Assembly (NCBI GenBank): GCA_034505795.1
Contig: JAPDQM010000001.1
Span: 6,094 to 70,093 of the forward strand
DNA from: Candidatus Zhuqueibacterota bacterium
GTDB taxonomy: Bacteria; Zhuqueibacterota; Zhuqueibacteria; Thermofontimicrobiales; Thermofontimicrobiaceae
Reading direction: 5' to 3'
DNA length: 64,000 bases
This document shows, one piece after another, positions 4,332 through 37,102 of the stretch; position 1 is the first letter of the stretch; every line of letters starts with the position of its first letter. Both the position numbers and the translations under genes were made by a program. The notes under the pieces are model-generated. The model saw nothing but the letters and a program-made list of their open reading frames with translations. It made no database searches and was not told the origin of the DNA.

Positions 4332-6668
4332 TCAAGAACGATACCACTCGGGGCCAGACATCCGCCACATGTAATTGGGATCAATATAGGGTTCGTCATT
4401 TTCCCGGCCTTGCATCAATTGTAGCCGCTTTTTCAGTAGTTCTCCAAAATTTTCACCGTGAATTAATGGCGTCTCGCCAACCTGAGAAATAACCATGAAA
4501 TCAACCGTTGATGATTCCCAAAGATTCAATAGTATTCGAGTGTTTTCGATTTCATCCAGCACTGCTTCCTTGACCAACTGTCGCCGAGCTTGTTTGATTT
4601 TGTCGTCCGGGTTTTCGAGAAAGCCGTGTACGCCGGCGATCCAGGCTGCGATGTTGCGATGGGTACGAAACCAGCAGCGAAGCGCAATTAGCCGATCGCG
4701 CTGATCGACAAAAAGACGATAGGCACTATCGTCTGTGGATATTTTGGCTAATACCCGATTGTAAATCGCCAGAGCTTGATCGATCAGAGACCACATCTTT
4801 TGATCCATGCGCTGCATCGCTAACAGACAGCGCTCTGGATCGGTGAGGTCAAATAGGACGTCCTTCATCAGGTCCACCATAGCCGGATTGTGCGGCGGCG
4901 AAATCATGAAATCCTCGTAATAGGCGCGGTCAGCTTTCGGAATTGCCTCGATGTTTGGCACCAGCGGTCGCACCCATAATCGCATCCAGGTGTGGCCCCA
5001 TAAAATGTACATCATCACCGGGATTGGAAACACGCGAATCGCTTGATCGGTGAGCCACCATGCTTCGACCAGATCTCCGGCCAATGACGTCCCGGCCCAT
5101 TTTTCAGCTATCTTCCGAATAACATTTTTAATATCGACAGAGGCATCGAGTTGAAATTCACGCCAGACTTCGTGATTGATGGACCAGGGCACCATGGTGG
5201 GCGGATTGATGCCGCCCATGCTGGCAAGGAAGCTGGCGCCTGTGTCGGCCAGTGCTTTCAATTTCTCATAAGTTAGCCATGGGGCTGGCGTGCCCAGCAG
5301 ACAGTCGAAGTTACTGACATTGCCATGTGCATAGACCACATGAGTGCGACAATCCTTCTGCGCTAGCCTATCCATTTCCGGTTTCTCTTTGGGATCGAAG
5401 GAGTTATGATAAATAGTGCCCATAACTTCGGTTACATCGTGGTACAGGGGATGGTGATAAGGGCTATCCCAGCCTTTGCTTAGCAGGGTTGCCACTTCCA
5501 CGTCCAGGCCATTGCCAATCTCGCGATCGATGACGTGGCGTTCTGCGGACAGTGCCTCCAGGCGGCTGATCACCCGAAATTCGGGATTAATTTGTCGGGC
5601 AGTATCTCGGAGCAGTTTCAGGAAGCGCATGATATTTTCGCCAGCACGATTGGCAATTTCTTCGTTGGACTTCCATTCCCGAATCAGATAAGCGCCTCCA
5701 TTCCGCCCGACATAAAGAGTGCTGGTATATTCAAAACCGGCGCCACTGTCATTGGTCCAGATCGAAATGTAGCCAAGCTCTGGTACTTCGTGCATCAATT
5801 TGGCCATCATTTCAGCGTAATGCTCTCGCACTGCCGGATGGGCTAATGTCAGATTGAAGCGAGGTTTGAGGCTACGGAAAGGATGATCGACGCGTGCTCC
5901 GCGAAGCATGGGATAGCGGTTTAGCAATTCATCGGGCACGTTGCGTGGCTCGAAGCACAGAAGCCCCGGCGTTAGCCCATATTTTAGTGCCAAAGCGGCG
6001 TTATTTTTTAGCAGGTTTAAATTCGCCTGGAGATAAACAGATGGATAGATGCCCTGATTCAGCCGGCTGTCGACAAATTGATCCAGTGCCGCACAATAAT
6101 TATAGAAATGGGGATAGACTTCGTCAGGCACGCCCTGCTCGTATGGCATGGGAGTGGCCAGACAATTGACCTCGATATGGGAGTAACCCAGCCGGGCGCA
6201 TTCGCGAATGTATGCTTCGCGATCAAAGTGCCGCGCAGTTCGATATTGGTGAGCAAAGAAGATATCCATCAGCGAGCGTTGCCAGTTGAAGGTAGTTCTG
6301 GCTGACCAGCCATGTTGAAATTGTTGCACATCCAGGTGTTGAAAGTCATCGGCGATACGGCAAAATAAGCCGTAGAGCAAATGTGGTTTTGAGGTGACCA
6401 ATTCGCCATTCCCAGCCTCATCCAATTGAAAAAACATCCAATCATTTTCGCTGCTATCCGGCATGGCGATGGGCGGCCCGAATTTTTCATCGGCAATGGA
6501 AATGCGGAGGACGTGGTTCTTGGCGGCAGTCGGATGATTCAACGGCGTCAATTGGGCTTTGGTCGCGAATTGCCGTTGGATGGCTTCAGCTACGGTTTTT
6601 ACTACCGGTCGACATGTGGTGGCATACTCAATTCTCTCGATTTTTTTCAACGCGTCACTTAAAATCAT
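4332..6668 (-). CDS. large conserved hypothetical protein (778 aa); possible glycoside-hydrolase-like TIM-barrel enzyme, family not recognised
   Basis: Uninterrupted 2.3-kb ORF with normal GC. No signal peptide is obvious. Sequence features such as GYSHIEVN and WTNDSGAGFEY suggest an enzyme-like TIM barrel, but I cannot assign a family. Confidence 0.6.
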   Translation of the reverse strand: MILSDALKKIERIEYATTCRPVVKTVAEAIQRQFATKAQLTPLNHPTAAKNHVLRISIADEKFGPPIAMPDSSENDWMFFQLDEAGNGELVTSKPHLLYGLFCRIADDFQHLDVQQFQHGWSARTTFNWQRSLMDIFFAHQYRTARHFDREAYIRECARLGYSHIEVNCLATPMPYEQGVPDEVYPHFYNYCAALDQFVDSRLNQGIYPSVYLQANLNLLKNNAALALKYGLTPGLLCFEPRNVPDELLNRYPMLRGARVDHPFRSLKPRFNLTLAHPAVREHYAEMMAKLMHEVPELGYISIWTNDSGAGFEYTSTLYVGRNGGAYLIREWKSNEEIANRAGENIMRFLKLLRDTARQINPEFRVISRLEALSAERHVIDREIGNGLDVEVATLLSKGWDSPYHHPLYHDVTEVMGTIYHNSFDPKEKPEMDRLAQKDCRTHVVYAHGNVSNFDCLLGTPAPWLTYEKLKALADTGASFLASMGGINPPTMVPWSINHEVWREFQLDASVDIKNVIRKIAEKWAGTSLAGDLVEAWWLTDQAIRVFPIPVMMYILWGHTWMRLWVRPLVPNIEAIPKADRAYYEDFMISPPHNPAMVDLMKDVLFDLTDPERCLLAMQRMDQKMWSLIDQALAIYNRVLAKISTDDSAYRLFVDQRDRLIALRCWFRTHRNIAAWIAGVHGFLENPDDKIKQARRQLVKEAVLDEIENTRILLNLWESSTVDFMVISQVGETPLIHGENFGELLKKRLQLMQGRENDEPYIDPNYMWRMSGPEWYRS

Positions 6669-24785: not shown

Positions 24786-24986
24786 ATGCGGGCATATAAA
24801 TATATAGTTGACGTAGATCAACACGGACAAATTAATGTCCCAAATATTCCTCAAGTAAAATCATCGAAGGTTGAAGTAATTATACTGCCGCTCCAAATTG
24901 ATGATTATTCCGATTTGATGAACGCATCAGAATCCTCAACTGATTTCTGGAACAACCCAGATGACGAGGTTTGGAATGACGTATAA
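24786..24986 (+). CDS. MazE/AbrB-like antitoxin (putative)
   Basis: 66 aa with an acidic C-terminus. GGAGG RBS is present. It overlaps the downstream MazF-like gene by 11 nt. Confidence 0.55.
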   Translation: MRAYKYIVDVDQHGQINVPNIPQVKSSKVEVIILPLQIDDYSDLMNASESSTDFWNNPDDEVWNDV

Positions 24987-25338
24987 TCAAAGAGACATTG
25001 TGCTTATTCCTATTCCTTTTACTGATTTATCGAGTCATAAAAAACGTCCAGTAATTATTATTTCAAATGACTATTATAACAAAACCAATCCTGACATTGT
25101 TGTAGTGGCGCTAACGTCGAATCTTATTTTTGAAAACAAATATACCATCGATATAGATAATCATAGCCTGGAAAGTGGCGAGCTCCCCACGAAAAGCAGA
25201 ATCAGATGTGACAAAATTTATACCTTATCCAGAAATATCGTTTTAAAAAAATTCTGTAAAGTCAACAATGAGACTTTCAAGTTAATAAAGGATAAAATAT
25301 GCGCACTGATTGATACTGACAATGAAATTTTGTTTTGA
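24976..25338 (+). CDS. MazF/PemK family endoribonuclease toxin
   Basis: N-terminus RDIVLIPIPFTDLSSHKKRPVIIIS matches the MazF/PemK signature (RGDIV.V.FPF....KKRPA.VIS). Low GC. Confidence 0.75.
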   Translation: MTYNQRDIVLIPIPFTDLSSHKKRPVIIISNDYYNKTNPDIVVVALTSNLIFENKYTIDIDNHSLESGELPTKSRIRCDKIYTLSRNIVLKKFCKVNNETFKLIKDKICALIDTDNEILF

Positions 25339-27861: not shown

Positions 27862-27889
27862 CGGCTTAATAACTATTTGGACCACGGAA

Positions 27890-27918
27890 CCGCCAGTGGG
27901 CGGTCCGCCTTTTGGCGG
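27890..27918. repeat. two adjacent CCGCC-N4-GGCGG palindromes (same family as at 24256 and 24317)
   Basis: CCGCCagtgGGCGG at 27890-27903 and CCGCCttttGGCGG at 27905-27918, immediately downstream of the nadE stop. Confidence 0.5.
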
Positions 27919-27937
27919 AATAGAACGACCACGGAAT

Positions 27938-28041
27938 TTTTTTGGTCTCAGAACTGAAAGGTCTCAGAAATAAAATTCTGAGGCATTTCGTTTCTGAGAC
28001 AAATTAATTTCTGATTATCATTTCTGTGGGACTGCAATTCT
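27938..28041. repeat. array of seven TTCTG(A/T)G(A/G) repeats at about 16-bp spacing (two inverted, five direct)
   Basis: Reverse-orientation copies GGTCTCAGAA at 27938 and 27954. Forward copies TTCTGAGG at 27970, TTCTGAGAC at 27986, TTCTGA at 28003, and TTCTGTGGGA at 28016 and 28032. Spacings are 16, 16, 16, 17, 13 and 16 bp. Confidence 0.45.
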
Positions 28042-28423
28042 GTGGGAGGAATTTTTTGTCTTATTCAGCTCCCAATACAGACCTCTTTTTTTTTCGGTTT
28101 CTATTTCTTTCCGTTTGACGCCCTTTAATCCCGATTCTAACACCTCTTTAATTAAAGTTCAATTGAAGATAAAAAATATGAGTAAAAGTCAAGCTAAAAT
28201 TTTCCCATAAAGTTGCTTGCAAAAATGTTTTGATTTTTGTATATTAAATCCCAGAACATGACCATCATCTGCCAATTAATGGGTAAAGGTTTCATTTGAA
28301 TAATACTCTATTTGGCTAACATAATTATTGAATTTTACCAAAGCGAAAAGCCAGTAGCCAGTAGCGAAGGGCGTAAAAGCATTACGACTAAACTCCCAAT
28401 ATCTCATTAAAAAATCGAATTCT

Positions 28424-28759
28424 ATGAATCCCATTACATTACAACAATGCCAGCACCTCGTCGACGAATGGATCAACACCATCGGCGTGCGCTATTTTTC
28501 CGAATTGACCAATCTGGCGCAATTGGTGGAAGAAGTCGGCGAGGTCGCCCGCATCATGTCCCGCACGTATGGCGACCAGAGCTTCAAAAAATCGGATGAG
28601 GAGAAAAAGCTATCAGAAGAATTGGCTGATGTATTTTTCGTGCTCGTCTGCATTGCCAATCAAACGGGCGTGGATTTGACCGAGGCGTTCTGGCAGGGGA
28701 TGGAAAAACGAACGGAACGGGATCGGGAACGACATCGGAATAACGAGAAATTGAAATAA
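28424..28759 (+). CDS. MazG-like nucleotide pyrophosphohydrolase (small all-alpha NTP-PPase)
   Basis: 111 aa with the EEVGEVARI...EELADVFFVL metal-binding EExxE/ExxD pattern of MazG/YpjD-type NTP pyrophosphatases. Confidence 0.7.
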   Translation: MNPITLQQCQHLVDEWINTIGVRYFSELTNLAQLVEEVGEVARIMSRTYGDQSFKKSDEEKKLSEELADVFFVLVCIANQTGVDLTEAFWQGMEKRTERDRERHRNNEKLK

Positions 28760-28800: not shown

Positions 28801-30258
28801 TTAATCAAAGTAGTTCGTTACATCAAAAATTTCTATACCTTTTCCCTGTAAGCTGATTTTTAAATCATCAGGTGAAACATCTCCGACAAAAACAGCCTTT
28901 CGATAGGTTTTGAAACGCCTTTTTTTTGAAATGATTTCTGATTGCTCCTGAAATTGATTAACGATAGCGCTGGTAATCCTTTTGCTGCTCAATTTGCATT
29001 CCCCGATCAAACATAAATCTCCTTTTTCCTGATAAGCCAGGAGATCGATTTCATTTTGCCCCCGATCCCAATATTTCCCCACAACATCAAAGGGAAACTG
29101 ATTGGGCTTTTCGATACATTGTCGTTGCAGCCAATCTAAAATTAATTTTTCAAATTGAACGCCAAAGAAATTGGGCAAGTCAGCTTTCACTTTGGGGATT
29201 ATTGCATCTCCAGAATAGTTTTCCAGCAGGCTAAAATTTTTATGGACATATCGAAACCAGAAGGTCAGAAAATTATCCTTCAAATAATAGCGATTACTTT
29301 TTCCTTCATCGCTACTGAAGACACTGGATTTTCGTTCAATCAAATCATAATAGTTCAGCAATTCATCCAGGTACTTGCCAATGCTATTCGGTAGAATTCC
29401 AGTGTGGGTAGAAATGTCGTTCCACTGAGTGAAGCCGCTAGCGATTGCCTCTAAAATTGAAAAATACCGGCCATAATTTTTACCAAATTCCTCAATCGTC
29501 AATTCTTTACCTTCATTGAAAAGAAGGCCGTCATTACGAAGTGCCAGACGTTGAATAATCTCAATGATGTCTTTGCCAAATAGATTTTCTCTTTCCATCA
29601 AATAATAATAAAAAGGGATGCCGTTGAACAGGAGCTGCAATTTTAGCTTTTCTCCCTGATTTAATTCAGTCTGTTGAGCAAACAAGCTGTTCATTTCTGC
29701 TACAGAAAAAGGCTTGAGGATCATCTTACCTGTTAAGCGTTTGAACAATGGTTCTTTTTGATCTTCAAATAGCGTATGCATGACGGTTTGCAGGGAGCCG
29801 ATGACAATGATGTGCCCTTTGATTTTATCCTTATACTCATCCCAATATTTTTGAACGATTGAAAAGACAGAAGCATCGACATAAAGAAAATTTTGAAACT
29901 CATCAAAAACAAAGGTATAATTTTTCCGTTCCAGCGTCTGGAAAAGAAATTTGAAAAATCCGTCGAAATTGGCAAATTGCAAGCCTGAAATTTCAGGGAA
30001 TTGTTGCGTCAAGAGCTCGGTGAACTCAACCAGCATGGCTTTGGGCTGTTTGCGAGAGACAAAAAAATAACAATTGGGGATATTATTTTGTTCTAGAAAA
30101 TGCTTGACCAGGGTAGTTTTTCCAATCCGTCTTCTGCCCGTGATCATGGTTAAATAGCCACCCACCGATGCGCGGGCAAGCTCATTGATCTCTCGAAGCC
30201 TGGCGAGCTCTGCTTTTCTTCCAATAAATTCCATTTTGACTGTACCATTTTGTATCAT
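28801..30258 (-). CDS. AAA+ ATPase (archaeal-ATPase/DEXX-box family) with C-terminal DUF234 / PD-(D/E)xK-like nuclease-fold domain
   Basis: N-terminal FIGRKAEL...ITGRRRIGKTTL Walker A and FDEFQ Walker B. The C-terminus carries EIDLLAY...LCLIGECK, which resembles a D-x(n)-E-x-K nuclease motif. GC is about 38%. Alternative start at 30234. Confidence 0.7.
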   Translation of the reverse strand: MIQNGTVKMEFIGRKAELARLREINELARASVGGYLTMITGRRRIGKTTLVKHFLEQNNIPNCYFFVSRKQPKAMLVEFTELLTQQFPEISGLQFANFDGFFKFLFQTLERKNYTFVFDEFQNFLYVDASVFSIVQKYWDEYKDKIKGHIIVIGSLQTVMHTLFEDQKEPLFKRLTGKMILKPFSVAEMNSLFAQQTELNQGEKLKLQLLFNGIPFYYYLMERENLFGKDIIEIIQRLALRNDGLLFNEGKELTIEEFGKNYGRYFSILEAIASGFTQWNDISTHTGILPNSIGKYLDELLNYYDLIERKSSVFSSDEGKSNRYYLKDNFLTFWFRYVHKNFSLLENYSGDAIIPKVKADLPNFFGVQFEKLILDWLQRQCIEKPNQFPFDVVGKYWDRGQNEIDLLAYQEKGDLCLIGECKLSSKRITSAIVNQFQEQSEIISKKRRFKTYRKAVFVGDVSPDDLKISLQGKGIEIFDVTNYFD

Positions 30259-30594
30259 ACCAATTCGTACGATAAATATAATGTTTTTAGATTAAAATGC
30301 AATAAGAATTTTTCAGCTATTCTTATTCTGCAATTATAAGGAGTAATATAGCTGCCAAAGCAGGATAAGGGGAAGAGGGAAAAAATTCAAGCCGAGAACG
30401 AAACCTATCAATCCGGCAAAGGTTAGGTATTTGATTGCTTGCCGTCTGAACAATAAAGGATTCTCTGCGGAGCTGAGGCAGGCATATGTTCAACCGTTGC
30501 GAAGGTTCGGAACCCTCGCAAGGCGAGTTCTTGTGTGAAAATTCATGGACAATCAGCAATTTTTTTGCCCCTTGTTCGACGCCATACTCCATGC

Positions 30595-33055: not shown

Positions 33056-36000
33056 TCAGCGAGCCAAAACCATTTTTCGTGAGGCTTCGAAATCTCCAGC
33101 TTTCATTTTATAAATAAAAATGCCACTCCCGACATGGCGGCCTTGATCATCCAGCCCATCCCACTGAATCCGATAATGGCCGGGTTTTTTAATCTCACCC
33201 ACCAGCGTTCGCAGAAGTTGGCCCATCAAGTTGAAGACCTCGATACGCACGGCTGCTGTCTTCGGAACCTCATAGCTGATTATCGTTTGGCTGTTGAAGG
33301 GATTGGGGTAATTTTGAAGCAATTTCCAATTCCTGGGCAAATCCTGTTCCCACGTTCGTTCGATGGCGGTGATGGTATGAGGTTGGTCGTCGATCATGAC
33401 TTCAGCCAGGGTGACATCGGCTGCCGAAGGATTCGATGGCACCTGCTGATTAAAAATGAATTCGAAGGTGATGGATTTATTTATTAGTGTCTGGCTAACC
33501 GCAAAGGCGACCCTCACCTCCTGTTGGGAGGTTGTGGCTGCTTGAATGAGCCCAGCCTGGGATGGCTGAACGATCCGGCAGCCTTGAAATTTGAGGCTGG
33601 GATTATTGAGAACTAATTTGAAGTTGCCACCAAAGGCCTCGTCGGCTATTTCCAGGTCAATCGATAATTTCACCCTATCATCGGCGGTCGGTTGGAATGG
33701 ATGAAAATAAGCCGCCAGCCGGGACGAGCCCTGCCCCGGAAGTATGGCCCAATTACCAGAAACATCACCGGTCAGTATGCCCACAAAATCCTGGTTTGCT
33801 TGATCCGCTTGAAGCGGTGAAAATGTCCGAGAAAGCGGTGCGCTGGCCCAATTGTTCCTATCGAGAGGGTAGTCGTGGGGCAGAAAGGTCCATTCTCGAT
33901 TTGAGGGAAATTCGTTGATGAGGCCAACGAAGTATTGTAGGATGAGAGCCGCATCCATAGAACTGACCTCACCATTGCCATTCACATCAGCAGCGATCAT
34001 CTGATAAGGCGACAGGGTCAGGCTGCCCGCTACGTGACGCAAGATCAGCGACGCGTCGTAGGGGCTAATGGCATTTTTGGTATGTCCCTGGTGCTTAGGG
34101 GTGACTCTGTAATCACCAATTGCCAGATGAGAAAAGGCGTAGCCACCATTGTTATCCGTAATGATTCGTTGGGATGCCGAGCCATCCAACTGGACGGTTA
34201 CGTTCGGTACAGCAGCGGCGGAGTTGCTGAAATATTTCAAACGACCGCTGATGTTCGAGAAGCGATTTTTAACTTGCATTGTTACGGGAAGGATTGTGGT
34301 CGGCCGACTCGGATCATTGCTGGCGATAAGAACATTACCATAATAGGTGCCAGCCACGAGCGTATCGCCAGCGACTATGGTGTTGAACGAAACTTGAACA
34401 TCCTGATGGTTGGCTGGGGCTAATTCACCGGCGGTTGGGGATAATTGCACCCATGGCGCCACCGATTCGCCGACAACTGCAATATCGTCCACAGCGATAT
34501 CGGCATTGTTGCTGGCCAACACTTGAAAAGCAATCCTCACACGAGGCCAGCCGCGATAAGCAGAGAGATCAATAACTGTATAGTACCAGGTAAAATCCTC
34601 CCAGACGCCGATGTCGCCGAACGTCCATAACGACTTCCAGGTGGTGCCGCCGTCGGTGCTGACTTTGACGAATAAATCGCCATTGTCATTAGGATCCACA
34701 TGCCAGTAGTAGCTACTGAGCCACCAAAAGCTCAATGCAGGAGACGCCACCGTTGAAAAATCCAGGTCGGGCGTGATTAGCCATTCATTCAGGTCATAGC
34801 CCCAGTAACAGCTTGCACTGTAATTGCCCGAAAAAAGGTAGGTCAGGCTGTCGATGGTCCAGTGGGCAGGATTGGTGCTGCCGGGCTTGCTGTTGCCGTC
34901 AATTTTGGTCCAGCCGCGCGGTGGCATAAGTCCCGCTTCGAAGCTTTCAAATAACAGGATTTCTGAGGCGGAAATTGCTGAATGGTGGGAACGCCAATCT
35001 GTGCTCGTTAATTCTGGATGGATCTGTCGCTGCGCATTATGTGCGGGCGTAAGCGATGGTATGGGGCGAGGTTGGAGCATAGTTTTGGCCTGTGTCGGTT
35101 CAATTGGGATTTTACGCTTTTGGCTGTTGGCTATCAGGTTCCAGGTTTGAGAATTTGGTTGCCAGCTCAAACTATAACTGAGCGTTTTGCCACCGGCATT
35201 GGAAATGGACATGATTCGAGTGGCGCTTTCGCCACGAAATAGCGAAACACTGAAAGAGTCCGGCGCAACGGTGATGGTTGGCGGCGGCACTAGAGCCGCA
35301 GAGATGGCGTGATAGGTATTGAGCCGGCCAAAGCCAAAGGCGTAATCGTATCCAACAAGCCCCAGATCGATAGCCGTACTGTTCAACAATTCACCGACGT
35401 TTATTGCGTTGAGGGAAGCATCTGCTTCTCGCACCAGCGCGGCAATTCCTGCGGCGTGCGGGGCTGCAGCCGACGTGCCAAAGAATGGATTGCTGAAATA
35501 GCCCAGTTGGCCGACTTTGGTTTGAACCCCATCAATAGCGGCGTGGTCTGGTTTGTTACGTTCCTGGCTGGTTAAGGGATTGCCCTGCAGGTCGTAGGCA
35601 TAGATGCGAACCGGCCCCTGACTGCTGTAATATTCGATGTCGTCATTGCCAGGATCTTTGGCATAGATGGCGCCCACCGTTAGGCAGCGATTGGCGCCTG
35701 CGTGGCCATAAATAGCACCTCCCTGGCCTACATACTGGGTGGGAGTGACACCAGTTCCAAAGGTATAGATCGATAGATTTCGAGCCGCCCCACTGTTTTT
35801 GCGCACACACAGATGGACTTTTACCGTGGCGGTTTTGGAATTGGTATAGCTGAGAATTTCGGTGGGATCGTCATTTCCATCCTGAAAAGTGATGCTGGAG
35901 GCCAAGTCGATCGTTAACTGCTCGTTATAGAGATAGAGATCATAATCGTCATGCGATTGACCGAAACGATTGTTCCATTGCAGCACGGCGATAATTTTCG

Positions 36001-37102
36001 CTTTGGAATTGAGCTGAATATCCATGGTTTCGTCATCAGAGGCAAAATTGTACCAACCATCGTCATCGGTATCAACAAAATCGCCCTCATGATGATCCTG
36101 CTGCAAATTGCCGGCGGCAGAAATATAAACTACATTGCTATCCTTGACGATCGAGTCCACGATCTGCGCAATGATGCCATCTTCATACACGGGCTCGAGG
36201 TGATAGAGGACATCATCGCAAATGATCGAGCAGCCGGCTTTTTTCAGTAGCAGAATGTTATTTGCAAAATCGGCCTGATCATTACCATAATCGGCAAATG
36301 CCAGCGCCGCTGCGGGTGCAATGTCGTGGATAATTTCCATCATTGCCGTGCCTTCATCTCCGCTAAAACGATGCTTAATAATGTCCACCGATGTTGGCAA
36401 ATCGCCGCTGGCTTGAGCATTGGAAAGATGAGTGCAGGCATCGGAAATAACGCCGATTTTCTGCCCGGCACCGGAAACCCCGAAGCTGGTGCGGGCCTGG
36501 TCAGCCCAGAGGATGCCATCGCCTTCGGTGGTCACCGCACCCGTCAGAATCTCTGGTTTATCTGTGGGACGAATATGAAAGATGGGCGTTAAGCGGGCAA
36601 CCTCGATAATGCGATCGTAGGGCAGCCAGCCGGTAATCGCATGAAGATGGGGAGCGATGGGCAAATGTTGGGTGGTAGCTTCTATTTCGAATTCCAATCC
36701 TGCAAGCGTAGATAGCAGCGAAGGTGTTATCTCGGTGGTTCTCAGCGTGAGGTGGCAGCGACCTCTGGCGTCTACTTCCAACAGCGGGGTTGAGAAATCG
36801 GCAACGATGCGCTGCTGCGCTAACGTCTGACGGCTGAGGCCAAGAGTGTTGATGGCAGTGAGAACATCATAGAGATGGGAACTGAGTTTGTGCATGTGAG
36901 ATGGCAGCGCCAGGCGCTCGTTTTTCCCGGCGAGGGCTTGTCGTGTGGTCTGCTCTGGCATCTGTTGTCCGTATCCTGGATTCAACCAGCCGAGGCCATG
37001 GATGAGCCAAACGATGATCGCCAATCGAAAGGTGATTTGCAATTTTCTGAGAATCATATCGAGACCCCCATAGAGATTAGATTGAGCTTGTGGCGCAAGC
37101 AA
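33056..37102 (-). CDS. secreted S8 subtilisin-like peptidase (1348 aa) with dockerin-like repeat and C-terminal T9SS-type sorting domain
   Basis: Signal peptide is present. Asp, His and Ser (GTSAAAPHAAGIAALV) catalytic motifs are present. Contains DVNGNGEVSSMDAALILQYFVGL (dockerin-type calcium-binding repeat). The C-terminal roughly 80 aa begins NYPNPFNSQTIISYEVP... and looks like a Por/T9SS C-terminal sorting domain. Confidence 0.8.
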   Translation of the reverse strand: MLAPQAQSNLYGGLDMILRKLQITFRLAIIVWLIHGLGWLNPGYGQQMPEQTTRQALAGKNERLALPSHMHKLSSHLYDVLTAINTLGLSRQTLAQQRIVADFSTPLLEVDARGRCHLTLRTTEITPSLLSTLAGLEFEIEATTQHLPIAPHLHAITGWLPYDRIIEVARLTPIFHIRPTDKPEILTGAVTTEGDGILWADQARTSFGVSGAGQKIGVISDACTHLSNAQASGDLPTSVDIIKHRFSGDEGTAMMEIIHDIAPAAALAFADYGNDQADFANNILLLKKAGCSIICDDVLYHLEPVYEDGIIAQIVDSIVKDSNVVYISAAGNLQQDHHEGDFVDTDDDGWYNFASDDETMDIQLNSKAKIIAVLQWNNRFGQSHDDYDLYLYNEQLTIDLASSITFQDGNDDPTEILSYTNSKTATVKVHLCVRKNSGAARNLSIYTFGTGVTPTQYVGQGGAIYGHAGANRCLTVGAIYAKDPGNDDIEYYSSQGPVRIYAYDLQGNPLTSQERNKPDHAAIDGVQTKVGQLGYFSNPFFGTSAAAPHAAGIAALVREADASLNAINVGELLNSTAIDLGLVGYDYAFGFGRLNTYHAISAALVPPPTITVAPDSFSVSLFRGESATRIMSISNAGGKTLSYSLSWQPNSQTWNLIANSQKRKIPIEPTQAKTMLQPRPIPSLTPAHNAQRQIHPELTSTDWRSHHSAISASEILLFESFEAGLMPPRGWTKIDGNSKPGSTNPAHWTIDSLTYLFSGNYSASCYWGYDLNEWLITPDLDFSTVASPALSFWWLSSYYWHVDPNDNGDLFVKVSTDGGTTWKSLWTFGDIGVWEDFTWYYTVIDLSAYRGWPRVRIAFQVLASNNADIAVDDIAVVGESVAPWVQLSPTAGELAPANHQDVQVSFNTIVAGDTLVAGTYYGNVLIASNDPSRPTTILPVTMQVKNRFSNISGRLKYFSNSAAAVPNVTVQLDGSASQRIITDNNGGYAFSHLAIGDYRVTPKHQGHTKNAISPYDASLILRHVAGSLTLSPYQMIAADVNGNGEVSSMDAALILQYFVGLINEFPSNREWTFLPHDYPLDRNNWASAPLSRTFSPLQADQANQDFVGILTGDVSGNWAILPGQGSSRLAAYFHPFQPTADDRVKLSIDLEIADEAFGGNFKLVLNNPSLKFQGCRIVQPSQAGLIQAATTSQQEVRVAFAVSQTLINKSITFEFIFNQQVPSNPSAADVTLAEVMIDDQPHTITAIERTWEQDLPRNWKLLQNYPNPFNSQTIISYEVPKTAAVRIEVFNLMGQLLRTLVGEIKKPGHYRIQWDGLDDQGRHVGSGIFIYKMKAGDFEASRKMVLAR

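Follow-up and report, generated by a model that had tools for sequence, protein, structure and literature searches.

Among the most prevalent candidate immune genes reported in archaea is PDC-S27, which belongs to a set of 145 untested phage-defence candidates (PDCs; Payne et al. 2024 preprint, 10.1101/2024.01.29.577857). The PDCs were proposed on the basis that some members are embedded in BREX, DISARM or type I restriction-modification (RM) loci, and they are reportedly mostly 'solo'. Surveys published since then describe a fusion of an ATPase with a PD-(D/E)XK nuclease, PDC-S27 being thought by their authors to target nucleic acids, probably. Its counted instances are 3,503 in archaea and 4,562 in bacteria; it is present in 71% of Halobacteria genomes and ranks with the commonest candidate systems in archaea. 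The DUF234 domain that it carries was placed in the PD-(D/E)XK superfamily as early as 2012 (family 76, Steczkiewicz et al. 2012), and DUF234/COG1672, as published, combines an AAA+ 'DEXX-box' ATPase and a PD-(D/E)XK domain, occurs throughout the prokaryotes and shows evidence of horizontal gene transfer. Here we describe an ordinary member of this family from a stretch of 64,000 nucleotides (nt) of a Candidatus Zhuqueibacterota bacterium (contig JAPDQM010000001.1), which we call the window. The gene occupies an open reading frame (ORF) at 28801..30258 on the minus strand. Its protein has the same architecture as PDC-S27, with a single gene and no architectural difference; the addition made here is a conserved tandem-palindrome operator over its putative promoter. 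On balance we lean towards the reading that the gene was acquired horizontally and encodes an ATP-dependent DNA endonuclease which represses its own expression and is probably directed against invading DNA.

A useful comparison for the operator is provided by the controller (C) proteins of RM systems. In these mobile cassettes two adjacent palindromic operators lie just upstream of the C protein's own gene, overlap the promoter and serve to autoregulate nuclease expression. C proteins are, however, small separate helix-turn-helix proteins that are neither ATPase nor nuclease, whereas the putative reader here is a winged helix within the nuclease polypeptide. There is also no methyltransferase here, and the likeness is one of logic, not of homology.

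The ORF claimed by the original prediction, an earlier reading of this DNA from the letters alone, is real. In the ORF list of the window it encodes 485 amino acids (aa), and residues are numbered throughout from this ORF, starting at 30258. The true coding sequence is most likely shorter, 28801..30234, with its start at M9. We place it there because the ATG at 30258 lies inside the conserved non-coding operator and is replaced by ATC in two homologous loci (L001 and L002), because M9 is invariant across the homologue alignment, because the NCBI annotation of the protein (P0001, from a candidate division KSB1 metagenome-assembled genome) is 477 aa long and 100% identical, and because residues 1-8 are disordered in an AlphaFold2 model (predicted local distance difference test, pLDDT, below 50). 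The low GC content of about 38% that had been said to set the gene apart from its neighbours is also confirmed: the gene has 38.5% GC and the window 46.9%, which puts the gene at the 2.6th percentile of windows of its length, and its GC at third codon positions (GC3) is 41% against 51-63% in the flanking genes. The features of the coding region are as follows.

28801..30234, minus strand: most likely coding sequence of the ATPase, winged-helix and nuclease protein, 477 aa from the invariant M9, with a full-length PDC-S27 match
29524..30234, minus strand: AAA+/ORC-Cdc6-like P-loop ATPase with helical lid, aa 9-245 (Pfam ATPase_2 and AAA_14; 2qen by sequence; Foldseek)
30112-30138, minus strand: Walker A motif GRRRIGKTT, aa 41-49 (coordinates checked)
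29893-29910, minus strand: Walker B motif VFDEFQ, aa 117-122 (coordinates checked)
29794-29799, minus strand: invariant G154/S155, sensor-1/arginine-finger candidates by position only
29737-29739, minus strand: invariant R174, sensor-1/arginine-finger candidate by position only
29275..29523, minus strand: winged helix-turn-helix, aa 246-328 (model topology; alignment with the 2qen and 2fna winged helix)
28804..29274, minus strand: DUF234, a PD-(D/E)xK nuclease domain, aa 329-485 (Pfam, fold, conserved residues)
29149-29151, minus strand: catalytic candidate E370, at least 90% conserved
29044-29046, minus strand: catalytic candidate D405 (in EID), invariant
28993-29001, minus strand: catalytic candidates E420-C-K422, invariant

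The protein is classed as PDC-S27 over its full length by PADLOC, one of the checks suggested with the original prediction. The profile, PDLC04985, aligns with residues 9-483 over profile positions 4-479 of 484 (E 8.9e-63). Pfam DUF234 (PF03008) is matched at aa 334-425 (E 2.6e-20) with 73.1 bits when the whole protein is searched and 75.7 bits when the C-terminus is searched in isolation, against a gathering threshold of 22.5; the domain is thus above the curated cut-off, in the architecture already published for DUF234/COG1672. The ATPase half matches ATPase_2 (PF01637; 40.1 bits, cut-off 33.2) and AAA_14 (41.6 bits, cut-off 27), and no NCBIfam model matches the protein. Given the full-length PDC-S27 match and the assignment of DUF234 in 2012, the gene is a further member of a known, uncharacterised family. 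The family loci that we examined with their gene calls show no conserved partner gene, as in a single-gene system.

The Walker A (GRRRIGKTT) and Walker B (FDEFQ) motifs, both named in the original prediction, were located, and G41, G46, K47, D119 and E120 are invariant among 46 homologues down to 34% identity. An AlphaFold2 model built from 46 homologues is confident (pLDDT 91; predicted template modelling score, pTM, 0.88). With Foldseek, the N-terminal two-thirds of this model superposes on the archaeal Walker-type ATPases 2qen (PABY2304; E 1.5e-14) and 2fna (SSO1545; E 2e-13), with a template modelling score of ~0.67 on the target, and then on ORC/Cdc6, RuvB and STAND NTPases. The PDB entry 2qen is also matched by sequence (E 5e-8). 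The structures 2qen and 2fna and ORC1/Cdc6 share with this protein an arrangement of ATPase, lid and winged helix. Judging from their length of ~350 aa and the aligned range, the 2qen and 2fna chains end about where the winged helix-turn-helix ends, and the nuclease domain lies beyond that point. ORC/Cdc6 binds replication origins; an origin role is not indicated for this protein. The winged helix-turn-helix of the model is made of helices at 249-273, 279-286 and 290-303 and strands at 307-310 and 323-326, and its putative recognition helix is PNSIGKYLDELLNY (aa 290-303).

The C-terminal domain has the alpha-beta-beta-beta-alpha-beta core fold of the PD-(D/E)xK superfamily. Placed by secondary structure in the model, E370 lies on alpha1, D405 on beta2 and E420-x-K422 on beta3, the canonical elements of the superfamily motif (an acid on alpha1, D on beta2 and (D/E)xK on beta3). 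D405, E420 and K422 are invariant in the 46 sequences and also in 25 C-terminal sequences. The DUF234 region with D...E-C-K residues that was originally noticed is therefore present as described, and the failure to match a nuclease fold that would have told against it did not occur. A search with this domain by sequence matched no PDB chain. A profile of the nuclease domain matches 4,454 representative clusters at E up to 1e-3, and among the 150 best matches listed most place it at the C-terminus of proteins of ~435-500 aa. The shorter proteins among these are probably contig fragments, and so it appears that family members are usually ATPase-nuclease fusions.

Other systems likewise couple a P-loop ATPase to a PD-(D/E)xK nuclease, e.g. 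Avs4 (a STAND ATPase with an Mrr-like PD-(D/E)xK domain), McrBC, Shedu SduA and Hachiman HamA. Proteins of these types appear among the structural neighbours of the two protein halves. However, the domain order and the ATPase clade differ from those of this protein, Avs has a sensor repeat domain that is missing here, and McrBC and HamAB have a separate partner subunit, of which this protein has none.

The upstream element is what we add to this picture. It is new: it is absent from the original prediction, and a literal string search of the open literature found no description of it. In an alignment of five upstream regions from loci without common flanking genes (A3), conservation covers ~75-95 nt upstream of M9 and terminates in this element.

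30242..30270, minus strand: conserved tandem-palindrome operator GTAC-N6-GTAT-g-ATAC-N6-GTAC, 29 base pairs (bp) with two 14-bp dyads, ending 7 nt before the M9 ATG
30273..30303, minus strand: putative core promoter, from columns conserved in A3 across loci with unrelated flanks
30273-30280, minus strand: -7/-10-like box TATATTTA, in conserved columns of A3
30299-30303, minus strand: -33/-35-like aTTGC, in conserved columns of A3, with a 19-nt spacer to the -7/-10-like box

The operator match is unique in the 64-kb window. All 16 half-site positions are kept between the window and three further loci (L001, L002 and L022), whose four-fold degenerate sites are 25-34% identical to those of the window, which is near random. 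The one argument that the operator may be under selection is this survival of its half-sites beyond synonymous saturation. A generic inverted-repeat finder and a sigma-70 promoter scan found neither operator nor promoter, because the half-sites are split. The reading of 30273-30303 as a core promoter in a KSB1 bacterium is putative, and its position is analogous to that of the promoters fused to the operator in other lineages.

Across the family we compared 83 unique sequences from upstream of bacterial and archaeal member genes. Of these, 76% have a dyad score of 11 out of 15 or more, compared with 1.8% of random windows and 7.3% of the regions upstream of other ORFs, and the dyad centre has a median position 29 nt before the ATG. 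The architecture is constant, with two 14-bp palindromes one base apart, in which one helical turn separates the half-sites. Complementarity is 91-100% in the half-sites and only 38-43% in the spacers, and it is for this reason that we interpret the element as protein half-sites. An RNA hairpin was considered and rejected, as the spacers are not complementary.

Although the architecture is constant, the half-site sequences fall into types. The N6 type, rTAC-N6-GTAT-n-ATAC-N6-GTAy, is found in KSB1, Thermodesulfovibrionales, Patescibacteria and Methanosarcinales. The N4 type, GCAAC-N4-GTTAC-n-GTAAC-N4-GTTGC, is found in Bacteroidales, Legionella, Spirochaetia, Eggerthellaceae and others, and a TACTAC...GTAGTA type in ANME/Methanoperedens. 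N4 units are concentrated at the family genes, with 84 within 90 nt of their starts and 29 in the remaining 1.1 Mb, and several of the 29 remote units are in fact tandem pairs beside family genes that were missed by the filter. In each lineage the operator is fused to the core promoter of the host: TAnnTTTG in 17 Bacteroidales loci, TTGACA-N17-TATAAT in Patescibacteria and a TATA-like box in archaea. It thus overlaps the core promoter of the gene itself and is conserved family-wide, as in an autoregulated cassette.

The operator type also co-varies with the protein. N6 operators pair with a recognition helix of the form GIxxNSxGKYLxEL, in KSB1 bacteria and Methanosarcinales alike. In Bacteroidales, Legionella, Spirochaetia and Eggerthellaceae, N4 operators pair with a helix shorter by three residues, GI---ExGGYLDKLE. 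It is the recognition helix, and not the host, that the type of operator follows. A good example of this is a single Bacteroidales contig (L030) that hosts two paralogues, at 6000 and 11774, with differing operators (one of the GCAAC/GTTAC type, the other of the CATTAAATTAATG type) and differing helices.

Some loci carry additional operator pairs. In two Bacteroidales loci (L034 5864-5892 and L048 5868-5896) an extra tandem pair lies ~120-160 nt upstream of the promoter-proximal pair. In a Muribaculaceae locus (L047) a second tandem pair of the N4 type, at 460-490, lies ~150 nt upstream of a 448-aa ORF (631-1977) that is itself immediately upstream of the family gene. This ORF looks ABC/AAA_15-like, judged from its sequence alone, and the operator may also control it as a neighbouring gene.

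The encoded protein is the only factor common to all of these hosts. On this ground we infer that it binds the operator itself through its winged helix and represses its own promoter. The following mechanism is then conceivable. The ORC/Cdc6-like AAA+ module would bind ATP and drive oligomerisation or remodelling on DNA, the winged helix would hold the DNA, and the PD-(D/E)xK domain with E370/D405/E420/K422 would cleave it. The ATP dependence of cleavage and the role in defence are suggested by the domains and their analogues; the biological role would most likely be a restriction-like defence against invading DNA. At its own locus, the winged helix would bind the two 14-bp palindromes (30242-30270) over the core promoter and the transcription start. 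Autorepression of this kind could keep a potentially toxic nuclease at a low level and make the cassette self-contained when it moves between hosts.

Three close KSB1 relatives (L105, L106 and L110) have an AEC transporter 86-87% identical to that of the window and share the gene order S8 peptidase, URO-D-like gene, AEC transporter and then convergent MazG, NadE, YjbQ and PemK. The gap between transporter and MazG is 42-76 nt in these relatives and ~1.8 kb in the window. BLAST comparisons with L105 and L106 show homology as far as 30591 and then again from 28763, from which it follows that ~1.8 kb was inserted and that the MazG-like gene is unrelated to the insertion.

28801..30590, no strand: 1,790-nt insert, missing at the syntenic site in L105, L106 and L110
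30591-30597 and 28794-28800, no strand: 7-nt direct repeat TAGGCAT that flanks the insert exactly (from the sequence)

The right-hand TAGGCAT is followed by TCACA, as at the empty site of L105. The left copy contains the stop codon of the AEC transporter, and the right copy stands directly after the DUF234 stop codon. The repeat may be a target duplication or microhomology; it is a single case, and its occurrence by chance is estimated at roughly 1 in 100 when the freedom of position is allowed for. The insert has no terminal inverted repeats at 30590 and 28801, and nothing in the closest homologous loci corresponds to its leftmost ~270 nt. Elsewhere, homologues at 61-84% identity sit among entirely different housekeeping genes, and the family is distributed patchily over many bacterial and archaeal phyla. 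From the GC and GC3 deficit, the three empty sites, the differing neighbours and the patchy distribution we conclude that the gene was horizontally acquired, as a ~1.8-kb insertion. Vertical conservation with its housekeeping neighbours, which had been named as grounds for abandoning the original prediction, is thus not what is seen, and the occupied and empty sites form a clean pair that shows the gene moving as a single-gene cassette. The proposal of an ATPase-nuclease fusion of the defence or mobile-element kind gains support from the empty sites and the PDC-S27 match, with 'defence' itself still a prediction.

We considered whether the gene is borne by phages and rejected this: among 2.9 million IMG/VR contigs there are only 18 relatives, so the family is rare in viral contigs, and the best group examined is conjugative-element-like. 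This group (L087-L090, e.g. L088 13-5453) carries a 34%-identical member together with a TraG/TraD-type coupling protein, ParB and an S24 peptidase, and the contigs look like integrative conjugative elements rather than phages. The operator in this group consists of three CGAAAC-N4-GTTTCG units.

Several points weigh against a self-repressed defence nuclease and should be stated together. In the one published phage test, a PDC-S27 representative was challenged in E. coli B with T4, T5 and T7, and it is not listed among the four candidates that protected. Searches of the open literature on DUF234, COG1672, PF01637 and PABY2304 found no functional study of the family. The gene does not lie in a defence island, as its neighbours are housekeeping genes (NadE, YjbQ, MazG, an AEC transporter and a URO-D-like gene). 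A few family members (L032_8125, L067 and L079) are without a clear dyad. Finally, co-variation of operator and protein is also expected from simple co-inheritance.

A different account of the insertion is that this is a selfish mobile gene. Like a free-standing homing endonuclease or an addiction module, the ATPase-nuclease would then serve to spread or retain itself without any net defence function, and the operator would do no more than reduce the burden on the host. A single-gene cassette with its own promoter and operator in unrelated intergenic sites is what one would expect of such a gene, as are its low GC, the precise insertion between convergent housekeeping genes with the flanking TAGGCAT, the members on a conjugative-element-like contig and the absence of PDC-S27 from the list of protectors in the phage test. 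We nevertheless consider it unlikely. No defined element is apparent, since the closest cassettes lack the leftmost ~270 nt; the insert also has neither terminal inverted repeats nor a second copy of the operator at the other end, and on these three grounds we rejected a classical transposon as well. No integrase or transposase is present. The 7-nt repeat could be due to chance or microhomology, as estimated above, and the PDC models derive from instances found within BREX, DISARM or type I RM loci.

A less probable alternative, to which we give little credence, is that the protein is primarily a DNA-binding regulator or a replication or repair factor, with a nuclease that acts in repair and not as an immune effector. 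The closest solved folds (ORC/Cdc6, RuvB, 2qen and 2fna) would suit such a factor, as would the sequence specificity of the presumed operator binding and the operator pair of the same type that also stands upstream of the neighbouring ABC-ATPase-like ORF in L047. However, the only operator in the 64-kb window is the gene's own, and the catalytic residues of the nuclease are invariant. The patchy spread over phyla, the multiple divergent paralogues and the empty sites in close relatives do not fit a housekeeping role.

That the upstream palindromes are not bound by this protein at all, being a host-factor site, an RNA leader structure or a passenger hitch-hiking with the gene, would agree with the fact that co-inheritance alone would give some correlation of clade and operator, but we find it highly doubtful in view of an architecture common to bacteria and archaea, which share no transcription factors, half-sites that persist where four-fold degenerate sites are randomised, non-complementary spacers that argue against an RNA stem, the lack of an Rfam match, and transcription starts that would fall within the element in archaeal and Bacteroidales loci, which would leave an RNA with only part of it.

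Returning to the self-repressed nuclease, the operator predicts both sequence-specific DNA binding by the winged helix and autoregulation, and the pairs of operator and recognition helix amount to a ready-made specificity table. Cultured carriers exist, e.g. Bacteroides cellulosilyticus DSM 14838 (L063). Together with the occupied and empty site pair, the family-wide operator makes an abundant candidate family experimentally approachable. We also raise a bolder idea, that the winged helix which reads the palindromes of its own promoter also sets the DNA target specificity, so that 'controller + motor + nuclease' would be combined in one polypeptide. This is speculative and we would be surprised if it held. 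If true, the upstream region of each PDC-S27 variant, among thousands, could be read directly for the specificity of that variant, and the family would be a methyltransferase-free, ATP-driven, sequence-programmed restriction-like system. Titration of the protein onto invading DNA would then lead to derepression, a built-in alarm.

The 5' region at 30259-30594 had drawn attention in the original prediction for two palindromes, which are distinct from the operator.

30299..30331, no strand: palindrome A, GCAGAATAAGAAT...ATTCTTATTGC; only the arm overlapping the -33-like box is conserved, the left arm is not
30494..30524, minus strand: palindrome B, a hairpin with a 14-bp stem ~70 nt downstream of the AEC-transporter stop codon, not conserved

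Both palindromes exist. As regulatory elements they were rejected, as the left arm of A and all of B are not conserved in homologous loci, and neither is the relevant cis-element. The region of palindrome B has no similarity in any of the loci compared and lies in the lineage-specific part of the insert; B may be the terminator of the AEC transporter gene. The 336-nt spacer folds no better than its shuffles (z -0.66), so the spacer as a whole is not a structured RNA, and Rfam gave no match for the whole window at gathering thresholds or for the 5' spacer at E up to 1.

On its other side the gene converges with a MazG-like gene, as the original prediction had noted.

28424-28759, plus strand: MazG-like gene, convergent (PF03819, E 2.7e-14)

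The neighbour is real, and its adjacency is a coincidence. A functional link was rejected, as the MazG gene is found at the same place in relatives without the family gene. A MazF/PemK-like toxin (PF02452, E 8e-18) with a small overlapping upstream ORF is found 3.5 kb from the family gene at window positions 24786-25338 (plus strand), and the GC of this locus, 32%, is the lowest in that part of the window. This module is also present in relatives without the family gene, and since the PemK gene is at the same place in L105 it must be older than the DUF234 insertion. A 560-nt gap of low GC (~35%; 27862-28423) with no Rfam match separates NadE from the MazG-like gene, and the length of this gap varies in close relatives (447 nt in L105 and 675 nt in L106). 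Further along the conserved synteny block, 33056-37102 (minus strand) encodes a protein of 1,348 aa, and its orthologues in L105 and L106 have Peptidase_S8 and faint Por_Secre_tail (type IX secretion) matches.

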